DNA from: Cenococcum geophilum | Taxonomy: Eukaryota | DNA length: 64,000 nt | Assembly (NCBI GenBank): GCA_050273025.1 | Contig: CP158635.1 | Coordinates: 7,316,001 to 7,380,000 of the forward strand | Reading direction: 5' to 3' | Shown here: positions 2,789 through 60,077 of the stretch, piece after piece | How the letters are laid out: each line of letters begins with the position of its first letter | Position numbering within the stretch: position 1 is the stretch's first letter | Program-made: the position numbers and the translations under genes | Notes under the pieces: model-generated | What the model was told of the DNA's origin: nothing | Seen by the model: the letters and a program-made list of their open reading frames with translations, nothing else | The model's database searches: none

Positions 2789-3979
2789 AATACTATTTGT
2801 TTTTAATTATTAATTTTTTTAGAATAAATTTATAATTTATAGTAGTAGAAATTATACTGCGAATATGGTGAGTTTTGGTGTGAAATCGCTTAGACGCAAA
2901 GACTTTTGTCCTGTGGCTGTACCTCCTACCCTTCCGGCACTATTATTAAGCCTAATATACCCCATAATATGTTGCCTAGTTAGACTAGCTACAGTACTAA
3001 TTACTAAGGCAGTAGGCCTAATAATGTTAGCAACCCTAATAGCGGTATAGATAGCGGGATTAATATAAATAAGTGCTATAATGGATATAGTAGAGTTAAT
3101 ATAGGTAAAGATAGCGATATAGATAATAAAATTAATATAGCTTTAGGTGGTAATAGGGATAATCAGAATGGTGTAAGTAAGGGGGGCAATAAATATAATA
3201 GAGTGGACGTAGGTAATAATACTAGCGTAAATAGTGGAGAAGATATAGATAAGGATAGTGGCGTTAGTAATAATTTTAAAAATAATACCTATAAGCTAGT
3301 CTTTAAAGGTATAAAATCGCGGAATTAGAAACGTACTATTAATATACTATATCTCTAGAATTATAAACAGTTAATAGTTGCGGTTAAGCTATTTAGAAAG
3401 ACGCCTAGGGCTAAACCTAATATAAGTCTTTAGTATACTATTAGAAAAGAGATTAAGTTAGTACTATTTAATAATAAAGATCTAGATATCTTTAGAATAA
3501 AAGTAATAGAGGGGTAAGGTAAGGCAAATGCTTTATAGTCTATAATAGGTTTAGAGGAGTAGCTATTCTATAGAGTAGTTATAATATAAATATATGTTTA
3601 AAGGTATATTGTGGCAATCTATAGCAATTTATAGCAATCTGTAGCAATCTGTAATAGTATATTAAAACTTAAAAAATTATATATATAGTAACCTAGTTAT
3701 TACGCGATATAAATACTATACGATTTATATAATTTTTATAATTAGTACGATTTATATATATTATACTAATAGTACGCTTTTTATTTATAGAGTAGGGGAT
3801 ACATGGTATCAGATTAGTGCTTAGGCGTTTTGCTGCGGTTTGCTTATAAATACTGCAAACTTGCTACGGAATGTGCGGTTTGCGCAAACCGATAACCACT
3901 ATATACCACTGCCGCGATCGTGCAGTTTGCGGCAATTTGCCGCAAACTGCAACAATACGCCCAAAAAAATTTCCTGATG

Positions 3980-4800: not shown

Positions 4801-7328
4801 TATTATTGTTAATTCTATTTAACGTCTAATGCGGTCCCTATTTAGGTTTATATAGACTAATACCATAATATAGGTATAAAAAACCTTTAAGGCAGATATA
4901 AGAGGTAATACAGTATATACCCCACTAGGTAGCATGCCCGTACTACGTTAATAGGAGGAAAAATACCATTAGGTCACTGCTTTAAGACTTCTATAAAGGA
5001 GTGTCCTAATTACCTATTTTATCCTATTTGCTATTTATATTATACTTTTACTTAATTATAGATTGCCGTAAGCTTGCCGTAAGGTTTTATATACCTACCC
5101 TTACTCCTATTTAAATGCCCTATATATATACGCCTACAGTACTCCTACTTATAGTATAATTTTTACCCTAAAGAAATAGTAGGATAAATTTAAACTAAAA
5201 TAGAACTAAGTATTTTATCCTAGGGCCCTAACCTAGGTCCCTTATTCCCTATCTTCTATATCTAATAAGTATGCTTAGCTTAGTACTAGTAGTAGGGGTA
5301 CATTAAGCCCCTATACTTAAGTACTAAAATATAGCTGAGTAGATTAAGGCGTAGAGAAAGACGGAATACTACGAAGTAAGTCTAGGCTATTAAGTAGGGT
5401 AGGGAATAAGAGGCTTATTATATGCTTCTTAGGCCGTATATAGTTCGTTCGGTTACTATACCGTATAGGTACTATATTATAGTTATATACTATATAGAAG
5501 GAAGGGAGAAAAGGGGGGGGCGCCGAAGGTAAATACCGTGTTTTAAATAAATAATTAGAATGTATATAAAGACGTAGGTAGCTATATCGAGTTCTTATTA
5601 GGGCTTACCCTCCGAGTGAAATTTTTTTCACAATACTACTATATTGCCGCGTCCGCGCTGCGCCGCCGTATATATATCTCTACGTTTGTTCTGGTAGTCT
5701 ATTAATATAATCTTAATAAAATGCCAATGGCTGTCTGCTAGGTTCCTAGGCTCTACCGCGTAGAGGTATAAAGGCTGATTTTTATAGAGCCTAGACCTAT
5801 TAATTATTAAAGAAGCTTAATATAAGATACCTAAGTCCCTTTTAAATTTTAAAAAAAATTAGTAAGCTAGCCTACTATCTCTAACTACCTTTATCTATAG
5901 CCCGTATATATCTAGTATTTTAAATAAATATACTAGAGCTATAGTATAGACTATCGCTAGAAAAGAACTTATATTTAGGTCTAATTAAATACCTTAAAGT
6001 AAGAGGCAAGCGATATAAGGTTAAAGCAATACTACGCTATAAGCCTATTAAAAATAAGCTTTAATATAAAGTTAAATAGCTAGGCTAGCCTATTAAGGAC
6101 TCTATATAGGAACTAGAGGACTATCTTAATTACTATAAAGATATTTTAAAAGAATATTAGGACTAAATTATATAGTCTATAAATTATAGAAAGCGCCCTA
6201 ATACTATAATGTTATTATAATCTATAAAGAAAGCTTATAGTAGGCCGTAAGAGGCCCTAAAGAGTATAAAAATAGTTTAAATCAGATATAGAACAGATAA
6301 GCTCCGAAAACTATAAGGATTAGGGCTACGGCCTAAGGCAGAATACGTCCTTTACTTTTTACGTATATAATATAGAATGTAATAGGGTATTTTGCTAAAA
6401 TTGCATTTCTATTAATTAGTCTATACTAGAAATAGTGTTTCTATAAGCTTATAAGTTCTTTCTAAAAGCCTTATAAGGCCTCTCTAAGCACTAATTAAGA
6501 TCTTTAATTACCACTATATATAAGAATAAATCACAAATTCTATAAGTCTAAGCTATAAATACATAGTCTAAAAGCCACTACGCCTTATCTTTAGAAGTAG
6601 GATTAGTATCTATTAGCCTATTAAGTAATAGCTAATAGGAATAAAATCCCTTTATAGGAGTGTAAGTAGGTATAAAAATAGGGGTAAGATAATAAGATGT
6701 AGCAGAAGCAGAGATTCTTAAACGCTTAACACTAATATTAGGTCTAAACTAATACTGATAAAGCTCTTAAGGCGTAAGCTTATAGTTTATAAAGATATAC
6801 TTAAGCCAAAAATAAACAGATATATTAGCTGGTTAGTATAACTTAGAACTACTAAGACCTTATTATAGTAACTATTAGTTACCTATCTGCTAGGTACCTA
6901 AGGAGTAACCTATCTAATAGTGTACTATATTATGCTCTTTAGAAACCTAATATATATAAAAACTTTTTCCTATAGTATATAGCGACCCTCTTTTTATTAC
7001 CCCTATTATTTACCCTATCCTTAATATACTAGCCTTACTCTTTTATTAAGCGCTACTAGCTAGCTTACTAGAAGTTATTGGCAGTATAAATAGCTGTAGT
7101 ATAGTTTTAAATTTAACTATGTTATTTAGTATTAGCGCTAGAATAAAAAAGAGCCTAGGCGATATAGTAGTTAAGGATATTAAAGGTATGTTACTACTTA
7201 GGCCTAGGCTGTTAAGACCTAAAGTTAGTAATGGAAAACCATCTAAAAGATAGGAAAGCTTACCTTAATATAACTACCACTCTTAATACGTATACACTAA
7301 TTATAAAGACTAAAGATATTAGACCTTA
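4800..7328. other. Unclassified RIP-degraded repeat DNA
   Basis: Very AT-rich, TpA-rich and CpA/TpG-poor; no ORF of 60 aa or more; no motif recognised. Confidence 0.5.
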
Positions 7329-8670
7329 TGTTACGGCACTAGTAGAAACTAGTAGATTATAGCTAATAGATATTGGTAGATTATAGCGGACAGTTGCAGA
7401 CAGTCGTAGATAGTTTTATACAGTTTTAGACAGTTGCCGTTACGTAACTAGAGGATTATATATAACGTTAAGCGGCGCCGCCCTTTATCTCCTTTCCTTT
7501 TTCTAGCTTTAGATCCTCGTTTATAGACTACTAATTATATAGGCTTGCGCGTCCCTCTTGCCGTGCTTATGCCTTAATTAACTAAGTTGCTAATATTATC
7601 TAAAGCTTGTCTACTCTTCTTCCTAAAAAGGAACTTTAAAAAATATCTACGGACCACAAATAAGAATAGAACATAGAAATAGACCTAAAGACTATTACTA
7701 GAACTCGAAGAATAAAATAGAACTAGAAGAATAGAAAAGAATAATAAGACCTATAGAACACGTATAGACCAGAACCCCTATAAAATTCTATTAAAAGCTA
7801 CCCTAATAACTATATTACTATACTAAGAACTATAGCGGCTGGTAAAGCAGCTATAGGACCCTTAAATACCTCCAATAGTAAAACAGCAACTAACTTAAAC
7901 TCCTAGGTAGAGCTTGTAGCAGCTAATGCTAAAATTAAATAACTTCGAGAGCTGCTTAAAGCTAGAGAACCCCTTATACTTAGTAAAGAGTTATTAGATA
8001 TCTAGAGACTTTCTATAGTCCTTAAGGCCTAATATATAGTATTAGCATCGTTGCGGTCCGCGAAGGTTATAGACCCCCTATTACTTATAGACGGAACCGA
8101 CCCTATATTTAATAATTAGAAGCTTTAATTATAGGATAAGCTTAAAGTTAATACGGATTACTTCCCTACTACTTAGGCTAAAATAGCCTATGTCTTTAGC
8201 CGTACTGGCGGGGATATATAGACGCACCTACGTCTATAATACGTATAGGACTTAGCAGATCTCTTCCTCTTTGGAGAAGAGATAATTATATACCTATCTT
8301 TTATCTATAAGGACCCCTTTAAAGTATAAAACGCCCGACTTAATTATAAAAGCCTAAATATAAAAACGATAGAGACCTTTTTAGCCTTTTAGACCCGCTT
8401 TCTGCACCTAGCTAGCTAGGCTTAAATTTCCTAGGAAGATCTAATACTAGACCTATTTAATAAGCTTACCCTAGACCTACAGCGAGCCGTATTACTAGTT
8501 CTTACTACTATATAGACGCTAAAGAAACTTATAGATTAGTGCTTAGCTATTAACTAAGGCCTCCACTAAATTAAGGCACGCGCCAAATGGTATAAAGCCA
8601 GAAACCCTTTAAATTAGACTATAAGCAATATAAGAATGGCCCACAATGCCCTAATATAATTGGCAACCCC

Positions 8671-13200: not shown

Positions 13201-14234
13201 TTTAGCTGTTATATCTACTAATAAGCTAAAGCTTTATATAAGATATATAACGGCCTTTTAAAGCCACTACCTGTTCCGGACTGAAGATAAAAGGATATTT
13301 TAATTAACTTTATTATTAACCTCCCCGTAAGTAAGGGCTGCATAAATATTATAGTAGTTATAGACCGGCTATTTAAGATAAGACACTTAATCGCCTGCCC
13401 TAATATATTAATACCTACTATCGCCTAACTGTTCCTAAATTATATATAAAAACTCTACGGACTCCCTAAAATAATTATCTCTAATAGAGGCAGCTAGTTT
13501 ATCTCTATATTCTAGAAAAAACTAACTACCCAACTCCGTATTAAAGCACTATTGTTTATAGTATACTATTTAGAAATAGATGGTTAAACGGAATGTATAA
13601 ACGCTATAATGGAATAGTATATTTGGATATATACGTTGTACTTATAAGATAACTGGATTAACTGGCTTGTATTTACTAAGTTTACCGTAAATAATTCCGT
13701 CTCGGAAACTATAAAGGTCTCCCTATTTCTGGCTAACTACGGCTAGTATCTATAAATAGGTTTTAAACCCTTTAGTAATATTCCTTGCCCTACCCGCTAT
13801 ACCTTATAAGTTATAAAAGTAAATAAATTTGTAAAGAAAATGGAGGAACTATAATAGTTTCTTACTAACAAAATAATATAGGCTTAATCTGTCTATAAAG
13901 CTATAGCGAATAAGAAATAAACCCTAGCACCGGCCTACTAAATTAGTAACTTTATTTGGCTAGATATAAGAAATCTAAATATAAAACAACCTGCTAAGAA
14001 GCTTAATTGGAAGAACGCTGGCGCTTATAAGGTCGAGAAGGTTATTTCCTCCTACGCCTACCGATTAAAGCTTCCTGATACGGTTAAAATCCACCCTATA
14101 TTCCACACGTTAGTCCTCTACCCCGCTACTTTTACATTAGACGCCCTGCCCGGATAGATATAAGACCCTCCCCTACCAGTTAAAGTAGATGGTGAGAATA
14201 AGTACTTTATTAAAAGAATTAATAATATTAAGTA

Positions 14235-14660
14235 ACGTATTCCACCACCGAGCCGGCAGAACCACCGAGCCGGCAAGTCCATTTCCCCACCAAAAATCGT
14301 AAAAATCACAATATAATATCTTAACAACCACTTAATAATAAATTTTAAAAATTTATATTTAGACTTTTATATACGCTTTGCAGCTTCTATTAAAGTTGTA
14401 TAGTAATTAGTTAAGTGGTTTTTAAAATATTATAATTTGGGGGCCAAAATATAGCCAAATTACTATATCTTAAAAACTACTAAACTAATTACTATGCAAC
14501 TTTAATAGAAGCTGCAAAGCGTATATAAAAGTCTAAATATAAATTTTTAAAATTTATTATTAAGTGGTTGTTAAGATATTATATTGTGATTTTTACGATT
14601 TTTGGTGGGGAAATGGACTTGCCGGCTCGGTGGTTCTGCCGGCTCGGTGGTGGAATACGT
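14235..14660. mobile_element. Foldback MITE (Tc1/mariner-pogo type) inserted in the chromodomain of element B
   Basis: ACGTATTCCACCACCGAGCCGGC...GCCGGCTCGGTGGTGGAATACGT; about 200-bp near-perfect arms; TA at 14233-14234 and 14661-14662. Confidence 0.9.
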
Positions 14661-14836
14661 TATAATAAATGGAAATATTAATATATATATCTCACGAAAT
14701 AGAAAGGCTTTACTAAGCCCTTATGGAAACCTGTTAACTCTATAGGACTTATATAAGCCATAGAAGACTTTTATAAACTCCATCTAGAACTACTATAACC
14801 CTATCTCGCAGAAGCTCAAGTTTAAAGGGGGGGTAC

Positions 14837-20276: not shown

Positions 20277-23200
20277 CTATGGACAAGTAGCCGGGATCGC
20301 AATCAGGTTACTGGATCGCAGAATCCGAGCGCCGCCCAGATTAGCTGTCAGAGGCAAGTCTGGGAAGTTTTCTTGCGGCATTAGTTCCACAGCAAGCACG
20401 CTCAGGGGTGCCTTAACAGAGAACCCAAGCGCAGCAAGTTGCGGAAACACGTCTCTATCGAGATCAAAAACCGCTTCGCCGTATGCCTGAACTTGTGAGT
20501 GAAAGTTCTGTGCAACCACGGCTCGCCTAGATGCCACGAAGACATTGTGGAAATCTTCTCCATCTAGGCGTGCCGCTTGCGCATATAGTACCACCTCAAT
20601 TGTCGAGGCAACTGATTTTGGGAAGTCAGCACGACCGCGATTGATTGGTAACGCATATGGCGCGCTTGCGATGATGCTGGAAATGTTCCTAGTAACCCGG
20701 ACATTCAGAGCAGGGGACGGGTGTTGAATGCCAGTCACACGCAGCGGCGGACCAAACCGACCTTGCGCTGTTGACCATAAGCTTCCGGAATGTCCAACTC
20801 GTAACTCATATGTAAACATTCCCAAGAGTTCAGGCGAATCTTCTGACATTCCAGGCGGAAGTGGCAAAGCCCAGTGGATTGGGGAGTCGGATGGAATCAA
20901 GGGCTGCATCGCGTAAAGACCAGCCGAGTCATCTGATTGACCAACAATTATCTTACGGACCGGTTCGGGGTCTATGGGGAGAGGCGGCTCGGAGTTTGGT
21001 CCTGTGGCAGATTCCGAACCTGCAAATAACGGGTCTGCACAATGCTGCAGGACACGAGCAAAGTAGCTATCTTGGGGATTTTGTAAAGCCTCTGCCAGCT
21101 CGATCCACAAGGCACGCTTGCGCGGCTCAGTCGATGCATAGTCTGATGATCGATGGTATGGGGACAACGCTATGCCTGCTGAAACAATGCGCGGCACTTG
21201 TGCTGGTGGCGTGGTCACCGGCAAGGTCATTTCAAGCTCCATCGGTCCATCTCCTTCACCTCCGCCTTGGAACGAGCAGACCAGCTCATAATCGAGCTGA
21301 ATTTCAGCTGGAAGCTCGCCTGGCTTCGGTTGAGGGTTTATAACGTCGATTATGATCAAGTCTGTTTCGTCTCGAGTAGGTGCGGTAAGGGCATCATGGT
21401 TGACATCTCCCGGTAACGAGAATTTACCGATCGTTGCGCCATCACGAGACACTGTCAGCTCGGACAATCCAATCCAAGTCCAGTCTCGTTTAATTGTCAA
21501 GCGAGCCACGACGAGCCAACGTAAGGCAAGGTCGCTCTGAGAAGCAAAGGTAATACTAGCCCGGTCAGGACCAAGTACATACTGGATGGACGAAGCACAA
21601 GCGAACACTGCGCGACGGCCGGGCTGAGGACGCAGTGTCAAGTTCTCGCTGCGCAGCTCCAAGGAGGACGCGAGTGTGGATGCAATATCGGAACCCTTCT
21701 CGTTAGGTTTTGCGGACGAGAGTAACAGGTCCGACAACGCTCCATCTGGCGGGATGTCCGGTTGTAGATACAGAGCACAGAACCGCTTGCTAGATGTTGT
21801 TTCCTTGAATAACGCTTGCTCACGCGAAGCATGCTTGAGTAGCGTTACTTGCGTGTCGATACTGCGAAGAATGTCCTCCGCTCCAAAATATACGAGTGGC
21901 TGCGTCGGATCAGTCCGTGGGTCCTCTCGGCAGAGCGACCTGATTCGCAATCTGATCAACCTTGCAGTTGGTAAATGCAGAGCTCCATCTGCTCCAACTG
22001 AGAAATCAAAGACATTGGAGATGTCTTTCCATGTCAAGTCAAGCTCGAGGGGCCTGTCAGCTGCTGTTGGAAATTGCCTCTCTACCGTAACCAAGGGGAT
22101 GAAGTTGTCACTACTAGCCAGTGGATCACCTTTCAGTGCTCCTACTTCGACAGTAATCTCAACGCGGTTCACATCTGGATCTGGTAATCCCGGTTCTCGT
22201 TGTTCTGTTTTGCTTGCAGCAATGTCATCGAGAAGGAGTTGTATGGCGTTTGTATATGCTCCAGTACACAGGACTGCGTTGCAACTTAGCAATGGCCTGT
22301 GAATCACAAGTCTGTCTGGCGCATTTTCTAGGTCTGGTTGGCTGCTGTCACCAATGTCGTCCTGGATGGTGGGCCGCAAAGGAGGAACCCATCGCCTAAA
22401 AGGAATAGTGGCAACTGGTTGTGGTCCAGGCAACAACGGGTCACTCTGGACCAGTGGGCCGCCGCCTGTTTGGTCCATGAATCGGACTCGAATTTCATAA
22501 GATTTCCCGTACAGTAACTGGGTAGCAGGCTCTGTTCCCACGACCAGCGGTATCGACGCCTGTTGTATACCCATTAGTTTCAACCTCCTTGGGTCTTTGC
22601 TGACAAGGGATGTTCCATCCCACGCCGACATGTATATCGGCAGCCCTGACACAGAGTCAGTGTTCTGATGTGCATAAAAATCCTTCGAGTAGCTTACAGA
22701 AGTCCCCCTTCGCTTCTCCACGGGAATTACCTGGATGCACTTCCACGTGCAGTTCGCCATCAAAAGTCCCAAACTCAAGATCTTTGAACTTGAGAGGCCC
22801 TTTTGCTCGTACTAGAGACTCCCAAGCTTCCTCGCCCTCCACTCTGATATCAATGCGGTAGCCAAGAATTCCGAACGGGCTATCGTGACCCTCGAGATCC
22901 GGTGAGAGCTGACGATTCATCCATAGAGCCATCTGCTCATCGTCCCATCCAATCTGTAGTCCGCATTCTTTGATTGGGCGACGTCCATCTCCAGATTGTT
23001 TTATTGGATCCATGTACTTCATTTGAGCCACATGGACAGCTTTGGCCCAGCCATCATTGTAGTCTTCGAATTCGGCGAATATCTGGTCGTAATTGACACC
23101 AAATGACTCGTCTGCTCGTACCGGAAAGAAAACCGGGCTGAAAAGGTGTCGGTTCGCACTCAAAGGCGGAATCTGCGTTGCATATGTTTTCAAGGCTTTC

Positions 23201-23847
23201 GGAGCGCCAGGAAACGTGACTCCAGATCCTCCGGAAGCTAAGGAAATCCACAGATAGCCCCCTTCTTCCAACAAGCTGCGATCAGCAACGGGAACGTGAA
23301 GACTCCGAATCATACCAGCTGCTCGTGCGAGAGACGGGTTCCGAATGAGAATCGCATAGACCTTGCCCCAGCTGATCAAAGGGTTTGGTGGCATTGGTTT
23401 GTATTTCGTATCTGGAGGGAAACTTATGGCGCAATTATACTCCTTTCCAAATACCAGGAGGCCAGAAGAGCTTGTCTGCGTTCCCACAGCCTGCCTGTAT
23501 GACTCGGGTGCATACTTGCGAACTCGATTCTCGGGACTGCGAACAGCCTTTCCGGCGGCTTCACTGATAGGCAGCTCATCCTGAAGTGCCGTGAAGAGCG
23601 ATGTTGCTGTCCCAACCGCGTCAGAAGCGATTACTGAAAATGGTGCAGTTGCCTCGAGTGGCAATGTATCGACGCCAGACTGGACGTGAACGTTGAAGTC
23701 GAAGGCAGCCTCCGCAAAGCTCTTTGGGTTTGGGGACAACAAAGGTTTGAGAGGACTGTTGCGTGGAAGCAAAAGCACATTGATTGTAAGAGTATCGGCC
23801 TCCCACTTCTGGAGGAAAGGTAGCGCAACCAGAACTATCTCCGACAT
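20277..23847 (-). CDS. Large hypothetical protein A, about 1172 aa, two exons (23847-22698, 22645-20277); bacterial-type uncharacterised family by recollection
   Basis: The 396-aa and 833-aa ORFs are joined by a 52-bp intron at 22697-22646 (GTAAGC...CTGAC...CAG), giving ...KGDF-W-LPIYMSAW... in frame. Motifs GWDDEQ, YEIRVRFMDQTGGGP, PDPDV, RDWTW, WSTAQGRFG. No internal stops and no obvious signal peptide. Confidence 0.85.
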
Positions 23848-24055
23848 GGTGGAGGAGAGAAAAAATTCAGGCGAGCATGAAGTTTGCAGGACTACTCAAG
23901 CAGTAAGAATATCGTAATGGGGCGGGCAGGCTTCAGAGGTTCTTCAGCCTAGTCCAGCATTGTTGTTGATGCAGACCGGTCATAATCTGCTTTCACTGAG
24001 ATGTGTATACGAGACGAGGATATGGAGGTTCAACTGATGCAGGAAAGTGGCGAAA

Positions 24056-24366
24056 GACGAAAGAGCAATGAAACAAAAGTCAGCTTCCGTTTGGATATCG
24101 TCCAAGATGTGTCGCGTAGCCAGTTTGGCACATGCCCTGCGCGAAGAGCTGAATGCATACTGCAGCTGGAAAGTTCCGGTCACTCGTTCTCGGCCAATCC
24201 GACACGACGAAAGAGCGATGGAACAAAAGTCAGCTTCCGTTTGGATATCGTCCAAGATGTGTCGCGTAGCCAGTTTGGCACATGCCCTGCGCGAAGAGCT
24301 GAATGCATACTGCAGCTGGAAAGTTCCGGTCACTCGTTCTTGGCCAATCCGACACGACGAAAGAGC
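24056..24366. repeat. 150-bp tandem duplication in the divergent intergenic region
   Basis: Two nearly identical 150-bp units; GACGAAAGAGC occurs at 24056, 24206 and 24356. Confidence 0.95.
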
Positions 24367-24546
24367 TGAACAAGCAGACCGGTGAGAAGTTCAGTTTTCA
24401 GTAAATCGCGAGGGTGTGGAAGAATTACGTGGAGCATTTCAGGCTCCATCCAAACCTTGCTCCTGAAGTTGTCATGGTCAAGTCCTCTCGCCCTTCAATG
24501 CGCATGCCATCCTTAACTTCTGCTATTTTCAGTCATATTTGCGATT

Positions 24547-27500
24547 ATGGATAACCCCCTTGATCAGTTCCTCCAAAACCGTCGAGATGATTCAAACTCA
24601 TCGATATCACTCCGCGATGCAGTTTCAGGAATCCAGCTTGACCAGCTGGCTGGTGCTCCGAGATCTCATGCGGTCCCAAGCTCTACCCTGGGGCCCTTTC
24701 GAGATCGGTTTGGACGAGACATTCTCGTAGACGTCTTCGATGCAACTGTATTGCAATTCGTGAAAGTCGTTCGGGAAGATGCAAGTCAAGCTTTCCTGCT
24801 TATCCACTCCTCTGCGGCCGACTTTGCGGGTGGTGGCACTTCTTTCACATTAAGTGGAGGATCACTACATCTCCGAGCTTCAGAGTTCGCGCCAGCGTCT
24901 ACAGACTTCTTCTCTGGTTTTCTCGGCTTCAAGATCGTCGAAGGAACCCTGGCATTCCGTGGGGAATATACCTTCGATGCAGCTTCGCAGACGCTCACAT
25001 TACTCGAGCCGCACGACGATCCTGGACCCTTTCCGGGACTGTTATCACTTTCCATGAAACTTGAGTACCCTGGGTCGTCATCTGTAGAGCTTAGCGGGAA
25101 AGGGCCTCAAGACGTTGTTCTGGAATTTGATGGAGCCTCTAGCCATGGAGGAGCGTTAGTCTCGGCCACGAATGGCTCCCTTTTACTACAGGGGAATACT
25201 GTATCTTTCACATATCTGGGGAAGCCTCCGGAATTCAATGCCGACTTAGCATCTCTAGGATTCGAGTTCCAGTCCGATCAATCAAAATTCTCAGGCCGGC
25301 ATGGACCGGGAACTTTGGTTGAGTTCATGGGGACTGCAGCCATTGCGAAAGCAACCTGGATAATTCCAGTAAGTTTTCAAGACCAATCGACACTTGGTGA
25401 AGTCGTAGGGTCCGGATCGATGGGCATCGAGTTATCCCCTGGACTTTCTATGAAGATACCTAGCCTAGGTGCGTCACTGGTCTGTGGTAAGATGCTAGTA
25501 GCCGTGCAAGGCAACGACATGTCGGCCGTGGGATCGGAAGGAAAGCTGAGTTCTGCAACTCATACCACCAAATTATGGAGCAACAGCTCGGTGACGTTCC
25601 GGAAGCAGGCGAGGACACAAATCACATACTTCTTCCAGCAAGCCGGAAGTGGAGAGGCCTTGGTCATGCCAATTGACTCGAAGATCAGCTTGAACAAGCC
25701 ATGCACGATCAATGGGGCAGACACCGTCTTGTCCGGGCAGGGGACACTTGCGCTCACGTCGGACGCTCAGTCCACGTCAATTAATATCGTGAGCACAGAA
25801 GGCCAGGCTTCGCCCGCTGAACGCCAATCCTACGCCTTGAAGAATGCCCTCTTCCAGACGAACAAGGTCAAGGCAATACGATTGGTGGGAGTGTATTCGA
25901 AAAACGGTGGCGGCTTGTCCAACGCCGGTGCCAACGTAACATTCGAATTGGCCCACGTAGTTCCTTTCCTCCCAGATCCCTATACCACCAATCTCGCAAT
26001 TGATCTCCAAAACCTCGCTCGGAGGGGGCTCGGCACTGATGTTGAGCTTTTCGCAGTGTGGAATAGGGAGACAGATGCAACGATCGACGTGAAGATGGAC
26101 CCGACGAGTTTGAGTGAGCTTGTGGTATTGCCCAGGGGCAATGATATCGACATGTCGCGCTCAGATGGTGGACGCTTGCTGCCGCTGAACGACAGGATCG
26201 AGGCGCCACCGACGACAGACGAAGTGACCGCACTCATTCAGCAAGGGCCGCTTCTGCTCGACCTCTCCTCAAATGCCTCTCAGTTCGGAGTTCGCATCAA
26301 CACGGCTTCTGACCGTAGTCTTGCGAGCATGGAGCTTTCGGTCTCCGACCTGCTTTTGCATCTTCCGTACAGGTTCATGAACCTCACAGCTCTTCCAGCT
26401 GTGCAGTGGGAGCCCGTCACCGCTGTCGAGAGTAGCAAAAGCCTCGACTTTGCTGGGTCCGGTCCGACCACGGTCATGGGCTCAGATACGGTCTCTCTGA
26501 CTCCGGTCACACCACGCCACGCCATCGATGGTTTCATCTTTGCTGCACAACCGCAGGCTGATCCACCTAGATTTTCAGTTCGCTTCGGACTGCCATCCGG
26601 AATTGTCGCCTATTCGACCTGGCCACGAACTGACGAACAATCGCCACGCGTTCTAGCCGTTCAGCCCAAGTTCTCATCTCCCGGCCTTACAGGAGGGGAC
26701 CAAGTGTCAATTCAAGCATCATCAAGGTTCGTATTCCCACCTAACAGACCGAGAGCGTCACCGCATCTGCCGGGCGTCGCACAATTGCGGGTAACCGGTG
26801 CGCGTTCTGGAGCGGACGCCTCTGCCATAGGTAAAAGCGACTTCATCAAGCTTTTCAACGACACCTTTGGCAAACCCGGCGGCAAGATCCCGGTGACCAG
26901 AGTGGACATCTCGGGCTACGGCGAGAGCCTGTTCAGCGACTGGCGTAACATACCCAACACTACTAGCGGCGCCGTCATAGAGAAGGTGCAGTTCCAGACG
27001 GCGGTTGGGAGGACCATTCGGGAGGTGGTGCAAATAACCTCGATTTGCTACTGCTACTGCTGGCGCGCGACCAAGACCATCGAAACCGAAAGAGCAAGCG
27101 ACGGGAAGCTGTACATCAGAGAGAGCGGATGGGAACCCACGGCGGATGGAGTCGGCGACGCTGGAACTTCAGGCATCATCAATCACGCAGGAGTCTTTCG
27201 TCATGCCAAAAACATCACCAACGTCCGCGAGATCGGAGGTCGCTCGAGGAACGTGTTGATCCCAGGTGCTGCCGAGCCGGTAACTGTGCAAGCTGTACTC
27301 TTCAACTGTACGTTAGACTTGGAAGGCACAGCAAACGTTCCGGCCTTAGATCAACTGGGTTACATCCCTTTGGGCGAGTTCACACCTGCGCACTACGCAC
27401 AGCTACTCGATGATGTTGGAACGCTAGGACGACCTATTGACACGACAATCGATGTCGCTAGCACAGGGCTTGAGATGAAGGTGCAGAGCGTCGGAGTGGG

Positions 27501-56701: not shown

Positions 56702-57378
56702 AGGAATTCAGAGACTCGCGATGCGCAAGAAGAAGAAGAGTACATTGTGAGCGAGGTGGAGAAAGATTGAAGTAAAAGGAATTAGTTACGGCAAAACGGC
56801 ATCTGGACAATGTTTAGTCGGTGACAATGTCTCTTACATGGCGGAAGCATCAAGCCGGCCGCTTGGCTAGCGGATAAGTGACTTTTCCGCATGGGGTAAA
56901 CACATGGGCGTATGGCCGCCCTAGTGGGCCAATAGTACGCGCGCATCCGCGGTTGAATGAGCAAGAGGGTGCAAGATTCGAGTAAATCTATGGCTTGGCC
57001 GCAGGTGGCGACATGGATATTCGCAAATATCGGCAAGACTCAGCGGGCACCCCAAGCCTCATGCAGGGTAAGATTCAGCGCCTTGCCCATTCGGGCAGGT
57101 CTTCCAAAAAAACGGTCTATTGCAGGATTGCCCATTGGCGGGTAACTATACTTTCTGTCACACAGGAACGCAGGTGTAACGAAAATGTGTAGAGTCCTAT
57201 ATCCCTGAACTCGTTGAGGCGCAACGCCAAGCTGGCTCGTGCATGAACACTGGTATCAGATGTACAAATAATAGCCTCTTATTGGCTGGATCCCTATCGA
57301 TATCGTTGCGCCAGAATCAACAGATCAAGGGATACTAGCGAGGCTATCACGTGATCACAGAAGCTCCTGTGCTCTGGG

Positions 57379-58970
57379 TTGACTCAGCATGCTCAGACCA
57401 AGAAACCGATGAATATCCGCTGCGCGGATAATCGAATATCCGCAAGCTAACCTATTCGATCGATCCATCTGTTTCTTGGTCTGAGCCACTTTGGCAGGCT
57501 TTTGGAAGCTGAGCCGCTCTGTTTGTATAAGGCAAACCATTAACTTTAACGAAATTAATGTAAGCAACCGCCACGTCTATTATCCTGTAAATACCTGCGT
57601 TAGAATTGCCTTAATCAGCTCTCTAATCGATGGATTTTCTAGAACTAACTACCAGCCATAGGTGCTCCAAAAGGCGTCGAAGAAACCCCTTTATTACGGC
57701 TCTGCAACGGCTCTACCACAGCTCTACTATCGCCTATATATAGTCGCCCATACAATCGTCTATACAAACGGCTTTACATCGTCTCTACGAACGGCTTTGC
57801 ATCACCTTTATGAACGGCTTTATGAACGGCTCTATGAACGGCTCTGCAACGGCTTTGCAACGGCTCTACAATAACTCTGCAATGGCTCTGCAACGACTCT
57901 GCAACGGCTCTATAAATAGCTCTGCTCTATAAACGGCTTTATGAACGGCTCTGCATGGCTTTGCGACGGCTTTATAAACGGCTCTGCAACGGCTTTATAA
58001 ACGGCTCTGCAACGGCTTTGCAACGGCTCTGCAACGGCTCTGCAACGGCTCTACAAATGACTCTGCAACAGCTCTACAAGCAGCTTTATGAACGGCTCTG
58101 CATGGCTCTACAACGGCTTTATAAACGGCTCTGCAATGGCTTTACAACGGCTCTACAACGGCTCCGCTAAATAAGTAGACCATTTATAGAGCCGTTATAG
58201 AGCCGTTACAGAGCCGTTTATAGAGCTGTTGCAGAGCCGTTTATAAAGCCGTTTGTAGAACAGAGCCATTTGTAGAGCCGTTGCAGAGCCGTTGCAGGGT
58301 TGTTGTAGAGCCGTTGCAAAGCCGTTGCAGAGCCGTTTATAGAGCCGTTGCAGAGCCATGCAGAGCCGTTTATAAAGCCGTTTATAGAGCTATTGCAGAG
58401 CCATTACAGAGCCATTGTAGAGCCATTATAGAGCGATTTATAAAGCCGTTATGGAGCCGTTATAGAGCCGTTATAGAGCCGTTACAGAGCCGTTGCAGAG
58501 CCAGTCTTAAGCTTTTAATAATAAACTACCCTCTTTATTAACTAATACTACTAAAGGTAAAGAGGGCTTAAATAGATTTTAATGGGTTTCAATAGATATA
58601 GTAGATAGAGGGTGGGTGGTTGAGGTTGATATATTATTAGTGCGGATATTGCTAATTATACACTTTGGCAAACTATGTTATGGCTATTTTAAAATTAATG
58701 TCAGGAACGGGAAGGCAGGGAGGCTTCTTATGTAGACCATTTGATTCGCTAGAGCTTAGTGTATAATTAATGGATTTTTGAAGCTGCCCAAACTTGTCGT
58801 AAGAATAAGATGTGAATATCTATAATATTAGCTATGCGGATATGCCGACCTGCTTTACAAACGTTGGCCAAAGTGTCTCAGACCACACAGGGACAGATGG
58901 CCTAAACTGGTTTAGTGCCATCGGGCCGGATTTATCCGGCGTCCCATGTGGTCTGAGCATGCTGAGACAA
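57379..58970. mobile_element. Non-autonomous DNA element 2 (same family as element 1, inverted), 9-bp TSD, hairpin termini
   Basis: TGCTCTGGG at 57370-57378 and 58971-58979; 22-bp TIR TTG(A/T)CTCAGCATGCTCAGACCA; terminal stems 57392-57406/57471-57485 and 58877-58887/58947-58957. Confidence 0.88.
57695..58502. repeat. 11-bp minisatellite (AACGGCTCTGC)n that switches to its reverse complement (GCAGAGCCGTT)n near 58175
   Basis: Read directly from the sequence. Confidence 0.92.
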
Positions 58971-60077
58971 TGCTCTGGGCACGACCGGCTTCACTCCCTC
59001 TCTGGCGAAATTTAAATTCACCATGCGCATATAATTTCGCCAACTGTACAAAGTAATTGTAGCGAACGGCTGTTGCTGCACGCAATCACTGTTTTGGTTG
59101 CCTGGAGAATTGTCTTGTTTGGCCAGGAGAATCGAATTTAGAACTTGCCTGACGTACGCTTCCTCTTCCCCCCTTTTGCCTACGCCTCCGTTCGTGGAAT
59201 TATCCCTTGCAAACGTTGACTCGTGTCTTATTCTTATCGATAAGCTACTCGATCGTTAGGATCTTAGAGCCGTGATGAGGAATGGCTATGAAAGTCTGAC
59301 AAAGGGCTCGAATTTGGGCAGCTGCCAAGACTCCGCAGATAGTTCTTTTGCTCACGAGTTGGAGGAACGACGTATTTGGTAGGTTGGACGATATCAGTAT
59401 CAAGAAAGGCACGATTAGACGGCATGGTGGTTGATTAATTGATGATTAAATTAATCTATATTATCTGCGAAGCTTCTGCGCAGCTCTGGGATAACACCCA
59501 AAATGCGAATACAACACTGCCTCTGTAGTAGCCGATAAAGTTTGGCAATGTCCTACAGTATAAGTGGAAACCTCACGATATTTGACAAAGATCAGGCCGA
59601 TCGCGAAGTTCTTACTGCCAAGCATAGGCGTTCGCTACGATTGTTATGTACAGCTGGTGGCAATCAGGCGAAGCTGAATGTGTACCGAATTCGAAACTTG
59701 CCGAAGGGAGGTGAAGCTAGTCATGCCCAGAGTTGTATTATCCACGAAACCCGATTTAGTGAGAGGCTGACGTGCAGAAGTAGACTTCTAAATTCTTAGC
59801 TTTAAGAGGAAGCAGCTCGTGGATAAGGGACAGGGATGCTACGTACTCACGGCATTACAGATGAGGGGCACCTAAGGTCAAAGCTCGATAAATACCAAGT
59901 AGCGCAGACGACAGAATCTACAGGGAAACATAAGACCCCCACAGCACAACACCATCACCGCTTTAATTAGTAATTCCGCCAGCTTTAATTCTACAGAACA
60001 TTTGGCTGTGAACTGTGTATTCCAGTAAGCCTAGCGGTTCCTCTTGTTGACACACGTCAACCCCTCCCACCCGCAAG

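Follow-up and report, generated by a model that had tools for sequence, protein, structure and literature searches.

INTRODUCTION

AcademH is said to be a lineage of the Academ superfamily, set out by Kojima in 2020 (Mob DNA 11:15), and we describe here an element that falls close to it, at positions 57379 to 58970 of a 64,000-nucleotide stretch of Cenococcum geophilum DNA (contig CP158635.1; this whole stretch is called the window, and its positions are used below). In the parts of the literature compared, AcademH elements make target-site duplications (TSDs) of 9 to 10 bp (PMC10045372). The family to which the window element belongs resembles them, as far as those parts go, in its DDE-type transposase, RecQ-like helicase, 9-bp TSD, fungal host and non-autonomous derivatives (PMC10045372, PMC10799480). 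The same texts leave unmentioned the covarying stem-loops, insertion into ends, dispersed 8-mer, Zn-cluster-like cargo and frame-breaking intron reported below, although the defining paper may show termini. A literature search on Academ elements likewise found no hairpin ends, self-targeting or dispersed motif described, the defining AcademH paper and its supplements being outside that comparison. Elements of this class have been described before; what appears to be added is the build of their ends, their nesting in one another and the dispersed motif. The window element has lost much of its interior, carries filler and belongs to an AcademH-like family, called family A, and comparison of its ends with those of relatives indicates that the stem closing each subterminal loop is conserved as structure.

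Other systems share single traits with this element. Subterminal hairpin ends occur in IS200/IS605 and in Helitrons and Helentrons, and Helitrons encode a helicase as well. IS200/IS605 elements and Helitrons use HUH/Y1 enzymes and make no TSD; they are ruled out by the predicted RNase H fold of the transposase and the 9-bp TSD. KolobokH has a 4-bp TSD of the TTAA type. It is also a fungal DDE element with a RecQ helicase, while KolobokP has terminal modules, each bearing a set of inverted repeats, according to the portion of the source compared (PMC9587614). The free-sequence 9-bp TSD rules out KolobokH, and the long terminal direct repeats of KolobokP were rejected because the modules seen here are inverted, differ in sequence in most families and have an inner boundary without a TT tip. 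Mutator and Foldback elements offer a 9-bp TSD and internal inverted minisatellite arrays. However, the parent transposase gave no Mutator-like (MULE) Pfam match at E ≤ 0.1 and the terminal inverted repeat (TIR) is about 20 bp, while the inverted array is present in only two of nine two-ended A derivatives, the window copy and L002, the only ones with both minisatellite orientations.

RESULTS AND DISCUSSION

Parent family of the window element

The parent was located through paired ends 6.44 kb apart. It measures 6,443 bp, as at L032:304-6746, and nine copies were fetched, seven of them intact and 99.9 to 100% identical and two mutated; the TSD was exact in eight and had one mismatch in the ninth. 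In eight additional full elements the TSD is also 9 bp, and TSD sequences show no strong base preference. The first open reading frame (ORF1) encodes 939 aa matching DUF6589 in Pfam (E 1e-68), and the convergent ORF2 encodes 854 aa with DEAD and Helicase_C domains, for which the top PDB matches were RecQ (E 7.6e-20), WRN and BLM. A helicase gene is also present in families B, C, E, F, G and H. The transposase motifs YDNFD, GDQKT and E are conserved, and the model of its catalytic part (pLDDT 78.6) is predicted to have an RNase H/DDE fold, with the P-element transposase (Z 9.8, root-mean-square deviation 5.6, 262 aligned) and Hermes (Z 7.7) as best structural matches, along with integrases. The combination of transposase, RecQ helicase and 9-bp TSD fits AcademH, so that the element is very probably AcademH-like, a class assigned from these described features and not from the published terminal consensus; the Pfam label of the transposase is DUF6589 only, a paper mentioning both DUF6589 and transposition draws no connection between the two, and the placement goes by description, not by an Academ reference sequence.

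For the family-A left end there were 137 candidate genome matches, 40 of which were scored, at 93 to 100%. Among 30 loci returned, nine were two-ended, all with 9-bp TSDs, and these derivatives are non-coding and repeated, 982 to 1,613 bp long, with differing interiors. MITEs (miniature inverted-repeat transposable elements) are short, non-coding, high-copy elements of uniform length. The sequence-only reading of the window had proposed a MITE of unknown kind and a second, diverged copy of another element of the window (element 1, 33193 to 35377). Neither proposal is supported, since an AcademH-like parent was found and the two elements derive from two families, A and B, with transposases about 50% identical. 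Family B is 11.1 kb long and its catalytic domain is 50% identical to that of A. Further families in the genome are C, D, E, F, G, H and K, and 80 metagenome loci were added through transposase alignment, many close to A, B or C and some distant (34 to 48% identity).

Conservation of the end stems

The left closing stem of the window element pairs 57391-57406 with 57471-57486, plus GATG/CATC, and its arms pair 57414-57420 with 57424-57430 and 57431-57438 with 57453-57460 (DNA fold -30.2 kcal/mol, z -6.6). The right closing stem has 11 + 5 bp, 58877-58887/58947-58957 and 58890-58894/58941-58945 (-32 kcal/mol, z -6.8). Element 1 has a two-armed right end (z -10.7), and the closing stem of its left end is firm, the arms there being weak (z -4.4); across the four ends z thus runs from -4.4 to -10.7, and none of 200 shuffles equalled any of them, the left end of the window element included. 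These folds bear out the stems and arms that had been described for the element and the statement that three of the four termini are two-armed. The 9-bp TSD, the shared terminal frame (184 matches in the 178-Mb genome against 0 for a reversed-pattern control) and the inversion relative to element 1 were also confirmed, both 'CCAAGAAA' ends being transposase-proximal. All three internal motifs said to be shared are present. AGACGATTGTATGGGC is part of a filler that parents A, B and C lack, and ATTAATTTCGTYAAAGTT lies near opposite ends of the two elements. The ends had appeared to differ because two families were being compared.

To avoid circularity, an earlier end set requiring at least 11 of 16 paired bases was set aside, and ends were collected by the terminal frame alone, without a stem criterion, giving 220 ends of 35 types from this genome and other fungi. 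The TIR is imperfect (TT(A/G)NCTCAG..CTCAGAC). Each end has the tip TT(A/G)NCTCAG and, 2 to 9 nt further in, a pair of inverted heptamers (CTCAGAC...GTCTGAG) that enclose 40 to 208 nt starting and ending in complementary sequence. At the eight positions inside the heptamers, 5.8 Watson-Crick pairs form, compared with 2.3 when the 5' side of one type is set against the 3' side of another (35 types), and at least seven of the eight are paired in 49% of types vs 2.6% of mixed ones. The pairs themselves change: among the 26 types with at least five pairs, stem position 1 is C-G in 11, G-C in 10 and T-A in 2, later positions use all four pairs, and some swaps between types are transversions, beyond what repeat-induced point mutation (RIP) makes. 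Furthermore, the heptamer has changed in register on both sides (CTCAGGC/GCCTGAG; A-T to G-C) in L131, L132, L153 and L161. A pairwise tally (270/640) was not used, as its family-C row had taken an interrupted A-type end outside the element.

For folding, one internal pseudo-end and three ends interrupted by nested insertions were dropped, leaving 31 types (L137, whose partner heptamer is doubtful, was kept). With the heptamers held fixed, z was at most -2 in 27 of these (median -3.3), although the types are not independent, as they include deletion variants and sister types, and such figures are not probabilities. The stem is kept across transposases 26 to 53% identical to that of family A, and in a tree of 16 transposases every clade has the terminal frame and the stem, while the interiors of different end types do not align. 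On this comparative evidence, the claim that structure rather than sequence is conserved holds for the closing stem and not for a two-armed junction, which was rejected: the shapes comprise 15 two-armed, 13 unbranched and 3 with more arms, and z ≤ -2 is attained by the interior on its own in just 10 of the 31 types. A search of Rfam gave nothing at gathering level, only fold-back miRNA models on the minisatellite.

Variation within families has to be read against RIP. The host appears to be a filamentous fungus that is rich in repeats and subject to RIP, given its AT-rich blocks and transposase copies full of TAA and TAG, and RIP yields false double changes from C-G to T-A in both arms, in up to 16 of 357 cells. 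Summed over six families, paired sites have a lower share of shared non-RIP variants (8 in 400) than loops (10 in 128) and the flanking interior (119 in 904), which speaks for the stem. The two left ends that are common in family B are distinguished by a 2-nt indel, which goes together with a C/T change of RIP type; both fold, with the junction closed.

Insertion into the ends of relatives

Elements of this group lie next to each other's ends more often than the background. A relative's end motif was found within 60 nt outside the junction at 28 of 191 unique junctions (about 15%) compared with 9 of 690 background windows (1.3%), although 4 of the 28 belong to loci picked for the closeness of their ends, and in some pairs both junctions stem from a single event. 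At 30 loci chosen by an interior motif, 6 of 37 junctions were at relatives' ends, one of them weak and three from one tandem array. Three copies sit about 28 nt from relatives' ends. RAG, which is likewise a DDE enzyme and shares this fold class, prefers hairpin targets, according to the part of the source compared (PMC1618415), a preference that would fit the excess of nesting. If the pattern is real, insertion into relatives' ends could be a damage-limiting or competitive targeting rule. As a separate observation, two tandem non-autonomous B elements (L215/L216, G000:C2:800129-804613) are separated only by a shared 9-bp TSD.

Dispersed motif

The 8-mer GCGGATAT occurs 26 times in family A, 34 in B and 30 in C, every 250 to 350 bp and on both strands. 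The distant L186 element, families E to I and distant relatives have none, and neither do 37.8 kb of the window that resemble host DNA. Within the A ORFs there are 11 copies in the transposase and 8 in the helicase against 1.2 expected, approximately ninefold and sevenfold enrichments over synonymous shuffles (maxima 6 and 5 of 2,000). Across the genome, the pattern TGCGGATATTG matched 1,065 times and its reversed control 391 times. Two of the six GCGGATAT sites in the A catalytic region are common to B and C, which indicates that sites turn over. RIP acts by a CpA/TpG-based rule; as neither dinucleotide occurs in GCGGATAT, the motif would escape RIP. Its dispersal suggests a recognition code that extends over whole elements, in a genome exposed to RIP. 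A likeness exists with VANDAL elements and VANC, where a short motif is dense in one transposon group that encodes an accessory protein, in the portion of the source compared (PMC5735166). The VANC motifs there are mainly non-coding tandem arrays, whereas copies of GCGGATAT are scattered over either strand, with an enrichment within coding sequence; the likeness is one of sequence. In family C, a duplicated cassette lies between transposase and helicase (L051:5607-6636 and 7501-8527), formed by a Zn2Cys6-like ORF and a coiled-coil ORF. The two Zn-cluster-like ORFs match Zn_clus at E 0.002 and 0.015, below the Pfam cut-off, and family A has none.

Possible role of the stems

We lean, by a little, towards the stem being functional as a DNA structure. 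Selection on the fold, which had been proposed from the sequence, is likely, but it is not separated from template switching. In such a scheme, the parent would supply the DDE transposase and the RecQ-like helicase that mobilise the derivative in trans. Forks, hairpins and branched DNA are substrates of RecQ-family helicases. The end would be opened during transposition by the helicase or by a passing fork, and could fold into a stem-loop or cruciform in which a double-stranded heptamer re-forms next to a single-stranded tip; the transposase would bind the heptamer duplex and cut at TT, and the helicase would expose the strand or clear the fold afterwards. The stem would then be the selected feature, and the inner arms a tolerated compaction of the loop instead of a fixed recognition shape. 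The same affinity for end modules might steer about 1 in 7 insertions into or beside relatives' ends.

Several observations weigh against this. The folding of the ends is predicted from sequence, and the left end of L186 (z 0.6) folds no better than shuffles, with three more end types at z -1.0 to -1.4; the dependence among the 31 types and the selected nesting junctions, given above, count here as well. The within-family covariation check that had been suggested proved uninformative, the eight shared non-RIP stem variants being essentially uncompensated. Family-B left ends keep a T-T mismatch in 206 of 213 copies, and the persistence of this mismatch means that perfect pairing is not needed. 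On the protein side, the match to the P transposase fold is modest, and a Foldseek search of the transposase model against PDB gave nothing at E ≤ 0.001. Finally, RNA contigs reach into both end modules, which would allow a role in RNA, and stems of this kind can arise and persist through template switching in the absence of selection, according to the portion of the source compared (PMC8794818).

Neutral upkeep of quasi-palindromes by the latter mechanism is the strongest of the alternatives, though we consider it improbable. The inverted heptamers would be ordinary double-stranded sites that seed template switching, one arm being copied onto the other and the stem lengthened, with no selection on the fold. 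The mechanism itself is documented in the part of that source compared (PMC8794818), stem lengths and loop shapes vary freely, and all seven non-T copies at the family-B mismatch carry the pairing base, which may reflect one subfamily. However, correction is rare, at 7 of 213 on the 5' arm and 0 on the 3' arm; inverted loops, an expected product, are absent from families A and B; and stems run inward only, in nearly all types across very distant transposases.

A less probable alternative is that the palindromes are inverted sites in linear DNA, of the heptamer or of GCGGATAT, for dimeric element proteins, folding being a by-product. CGG is a known Zn2Cys6 half-site. In the B left end, arm 1 consists of two inverted copies of GCGGATAT, GCGGATAT has a CGG core, and family C encodes the two Zn-cluster-like ORFs described above. 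Against this, the closing stem differs wholesale between families and even between the two ends of one element, all of which a single protein would need to read, and families without GCGGATAT (E, H, L186 and others) keep the stem.

Slightly more doubtful still is that the stems act in RNA, as transcribed hairpins that control translation or stability or feed small RNAs tuning the element. Spliced contigs cover family A, one beginning inside the left module and one reaching into the right, but contigs can neither show starts nor exclude DNA. G-T and C-A mismatches (8 vs 12) show no one-strand excess, a weak argument because they are not oriented by transcription; the stem accompanies the cutting ends and the heptamers at both ends; and no Rfam family reached threshold. 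Parvovirus or adeno-associated virus (AAV) repeats resemble the T-shaped ends in their long stem with two short arms, but there is no Rep/HUH gene, and the T shape occurs in only 15 of 31 types. A rolling hairpin was rejected because flip-flop orientation is absent (0 flipped A-left ends; beside 213 normal B-left ends, two matches proved to be, in one case, a truncated end and, in the other, an end bordering on another element).

If the stems do function as DNA structures, this would be structure-dependent end recognition by a eukaryotic DDE transposon, a route so far associated with HUH enzymes. The parts of the literature examined give no explanation for the RecQ helicase of AcademH, and the stem-loop gives a concrete substrate hypothesis; its covariation at both ends, across transposases down to about 26% identity, hints at why a helicase would be needed. 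A broader proposal joins everything, with AcademH ends recognised as folded DNA, the element unwound by RecQ so that its ends form stem-loops, homing to relatives' ends and, in one clade, a VANC-like Zn-cluster/GCGGATAT system whose motif extends into coding sequence; as a whole we put it forward only tentatively and think it rather unlikely to hold in every part. The genome holds seven intact, transcribed family-A copies.

Transcripts of family A

Contigs of two metatranscriptomes span the entire family-A element and show eight GT-AG joints on the strand of the transposase; four of these lie within the helicase ORF, antisense to it. A 49-nt transposase intron (L032:1536-1584) is spliced in RNA contigs and breaks the frame: splicing leaves 318 aa and retention 939 aa. 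In family C the two parts of the transposase are in different frames at the equivalent place, and a Met just ahead of the catalytic domain recurs in several relatives. The spliced form is possibly a repressor or a split transposase. Spliced contigs of the plus strand cross the helicase ORF in antisense at L032:3450-5910, and a CT-AC joint at 3569-3630 marks a minus-strand transcript too; double-stranded RNA of family A is possible. The raw-read RNA run X21 gave four partial reads, too few for starts, strand or small RNA.

Features of the window

The features of the window element and of element 1 are collected in Table 1.

Table 1. Coordinates of the family-A derivative and of element 1 in the window
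Feature	Position	Strand	Remark
Left TSD, TGCTCTGGG, 9 bp	57370..57378	+	Right copy 58971..58979 (+)
Non-autonomous family-A derivative, 1,592 bp	57379..58970	+ (parent's transposase direction)	AcademH-like transposon
Left tip TTGACTCAG, spacer, outer heptamer CTCAGAC (57392-57398)	57379..57398	+	Short imperfect TIR
Left subterminal stem-loop, two arms (57414-57430; 57431-57460)	57391..57486	.	16+4-bp closing stem
Left inner heptamer GTCTGAG	57479..57485		Inside left stem-loop
Two GCGGATAT copies in left stem-loop	57413..57443	-	Further copies at 58642 and 58836 (+)
Counterpart of parent-A positions 1-324, 94%	57379..57701	+	Up to transposase ORF start
11-bp minisatellite (ACGGCTCTACA, 40.6 copies)	57696..58164	+	Filler without match in parents A, B, C
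Filler motif AGACGATTGTATGGGC	57746..57761	-	115 exact genome copies
Inverted 11-bp minisatellite, 27.9 copies	58184..58502	-	Gives internal fold-back
Displaced fragment matching parent A 330-383, 87%	58498..58548	+
Counterpart of parent-A 6031-6443, 87%	58569..58970	+	Helicase-proximal end
Right subterminal stem-loop, two arms (58896-58922; 58925-58940)	58877..58957	.	Heptamers 58877-58883 and 58951-58957
Right outer heptamer, spacer, tip TTGTCTCAG	58951..58970	-	Short imperfect TIR
Element 1, non-autonomous family-B derivative	33193..35377	-	Ends 91-93% to 11.1-kb parent
TSD of element 1, GTCTGCCTT	33184-33192 / 35378-35386
Family-K terminal stem-loop split by element 1	33081..35414	-	Element 1 inserted into family-K stem

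Filler of one type, a GCAGAGC-core minisatellite with AGACGATTGTATGGGC, occupies window positions 57702-58497 and 33964-34940 and occurs also at loci L191-L220; it sits between the ends of several families. AGACGATTGTATGGGC itself occurs between the ends of families A, B and K and beside C and H ends. Family I (L081) was considered as the source of the filler, but its array appears to be a passenger's. About 150 nt inside the family-A left end, on the minus strand at ~57509-57531, a degenerate inverted tip-like sequence resembles the family-E tip, by chance or as a relic.

Elsewhere in the window, positions 30886-33006 hold a separate TIR element with 42-bp inverted repeats and a decayed ORF, which we take to be a Tc1/mariner transposase of the Fot1/pogo type. 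A 208-bp inverted repeat (14233-14662), 97% complementary with a 14-nt spacer, lies within an AT-rich block. Large ORFs (833, 396 and 1,487 aa) without obvious introns cluster at 20277-29010, and a 150-bp tandem duplication is found inside this cluster at 24056-24366.

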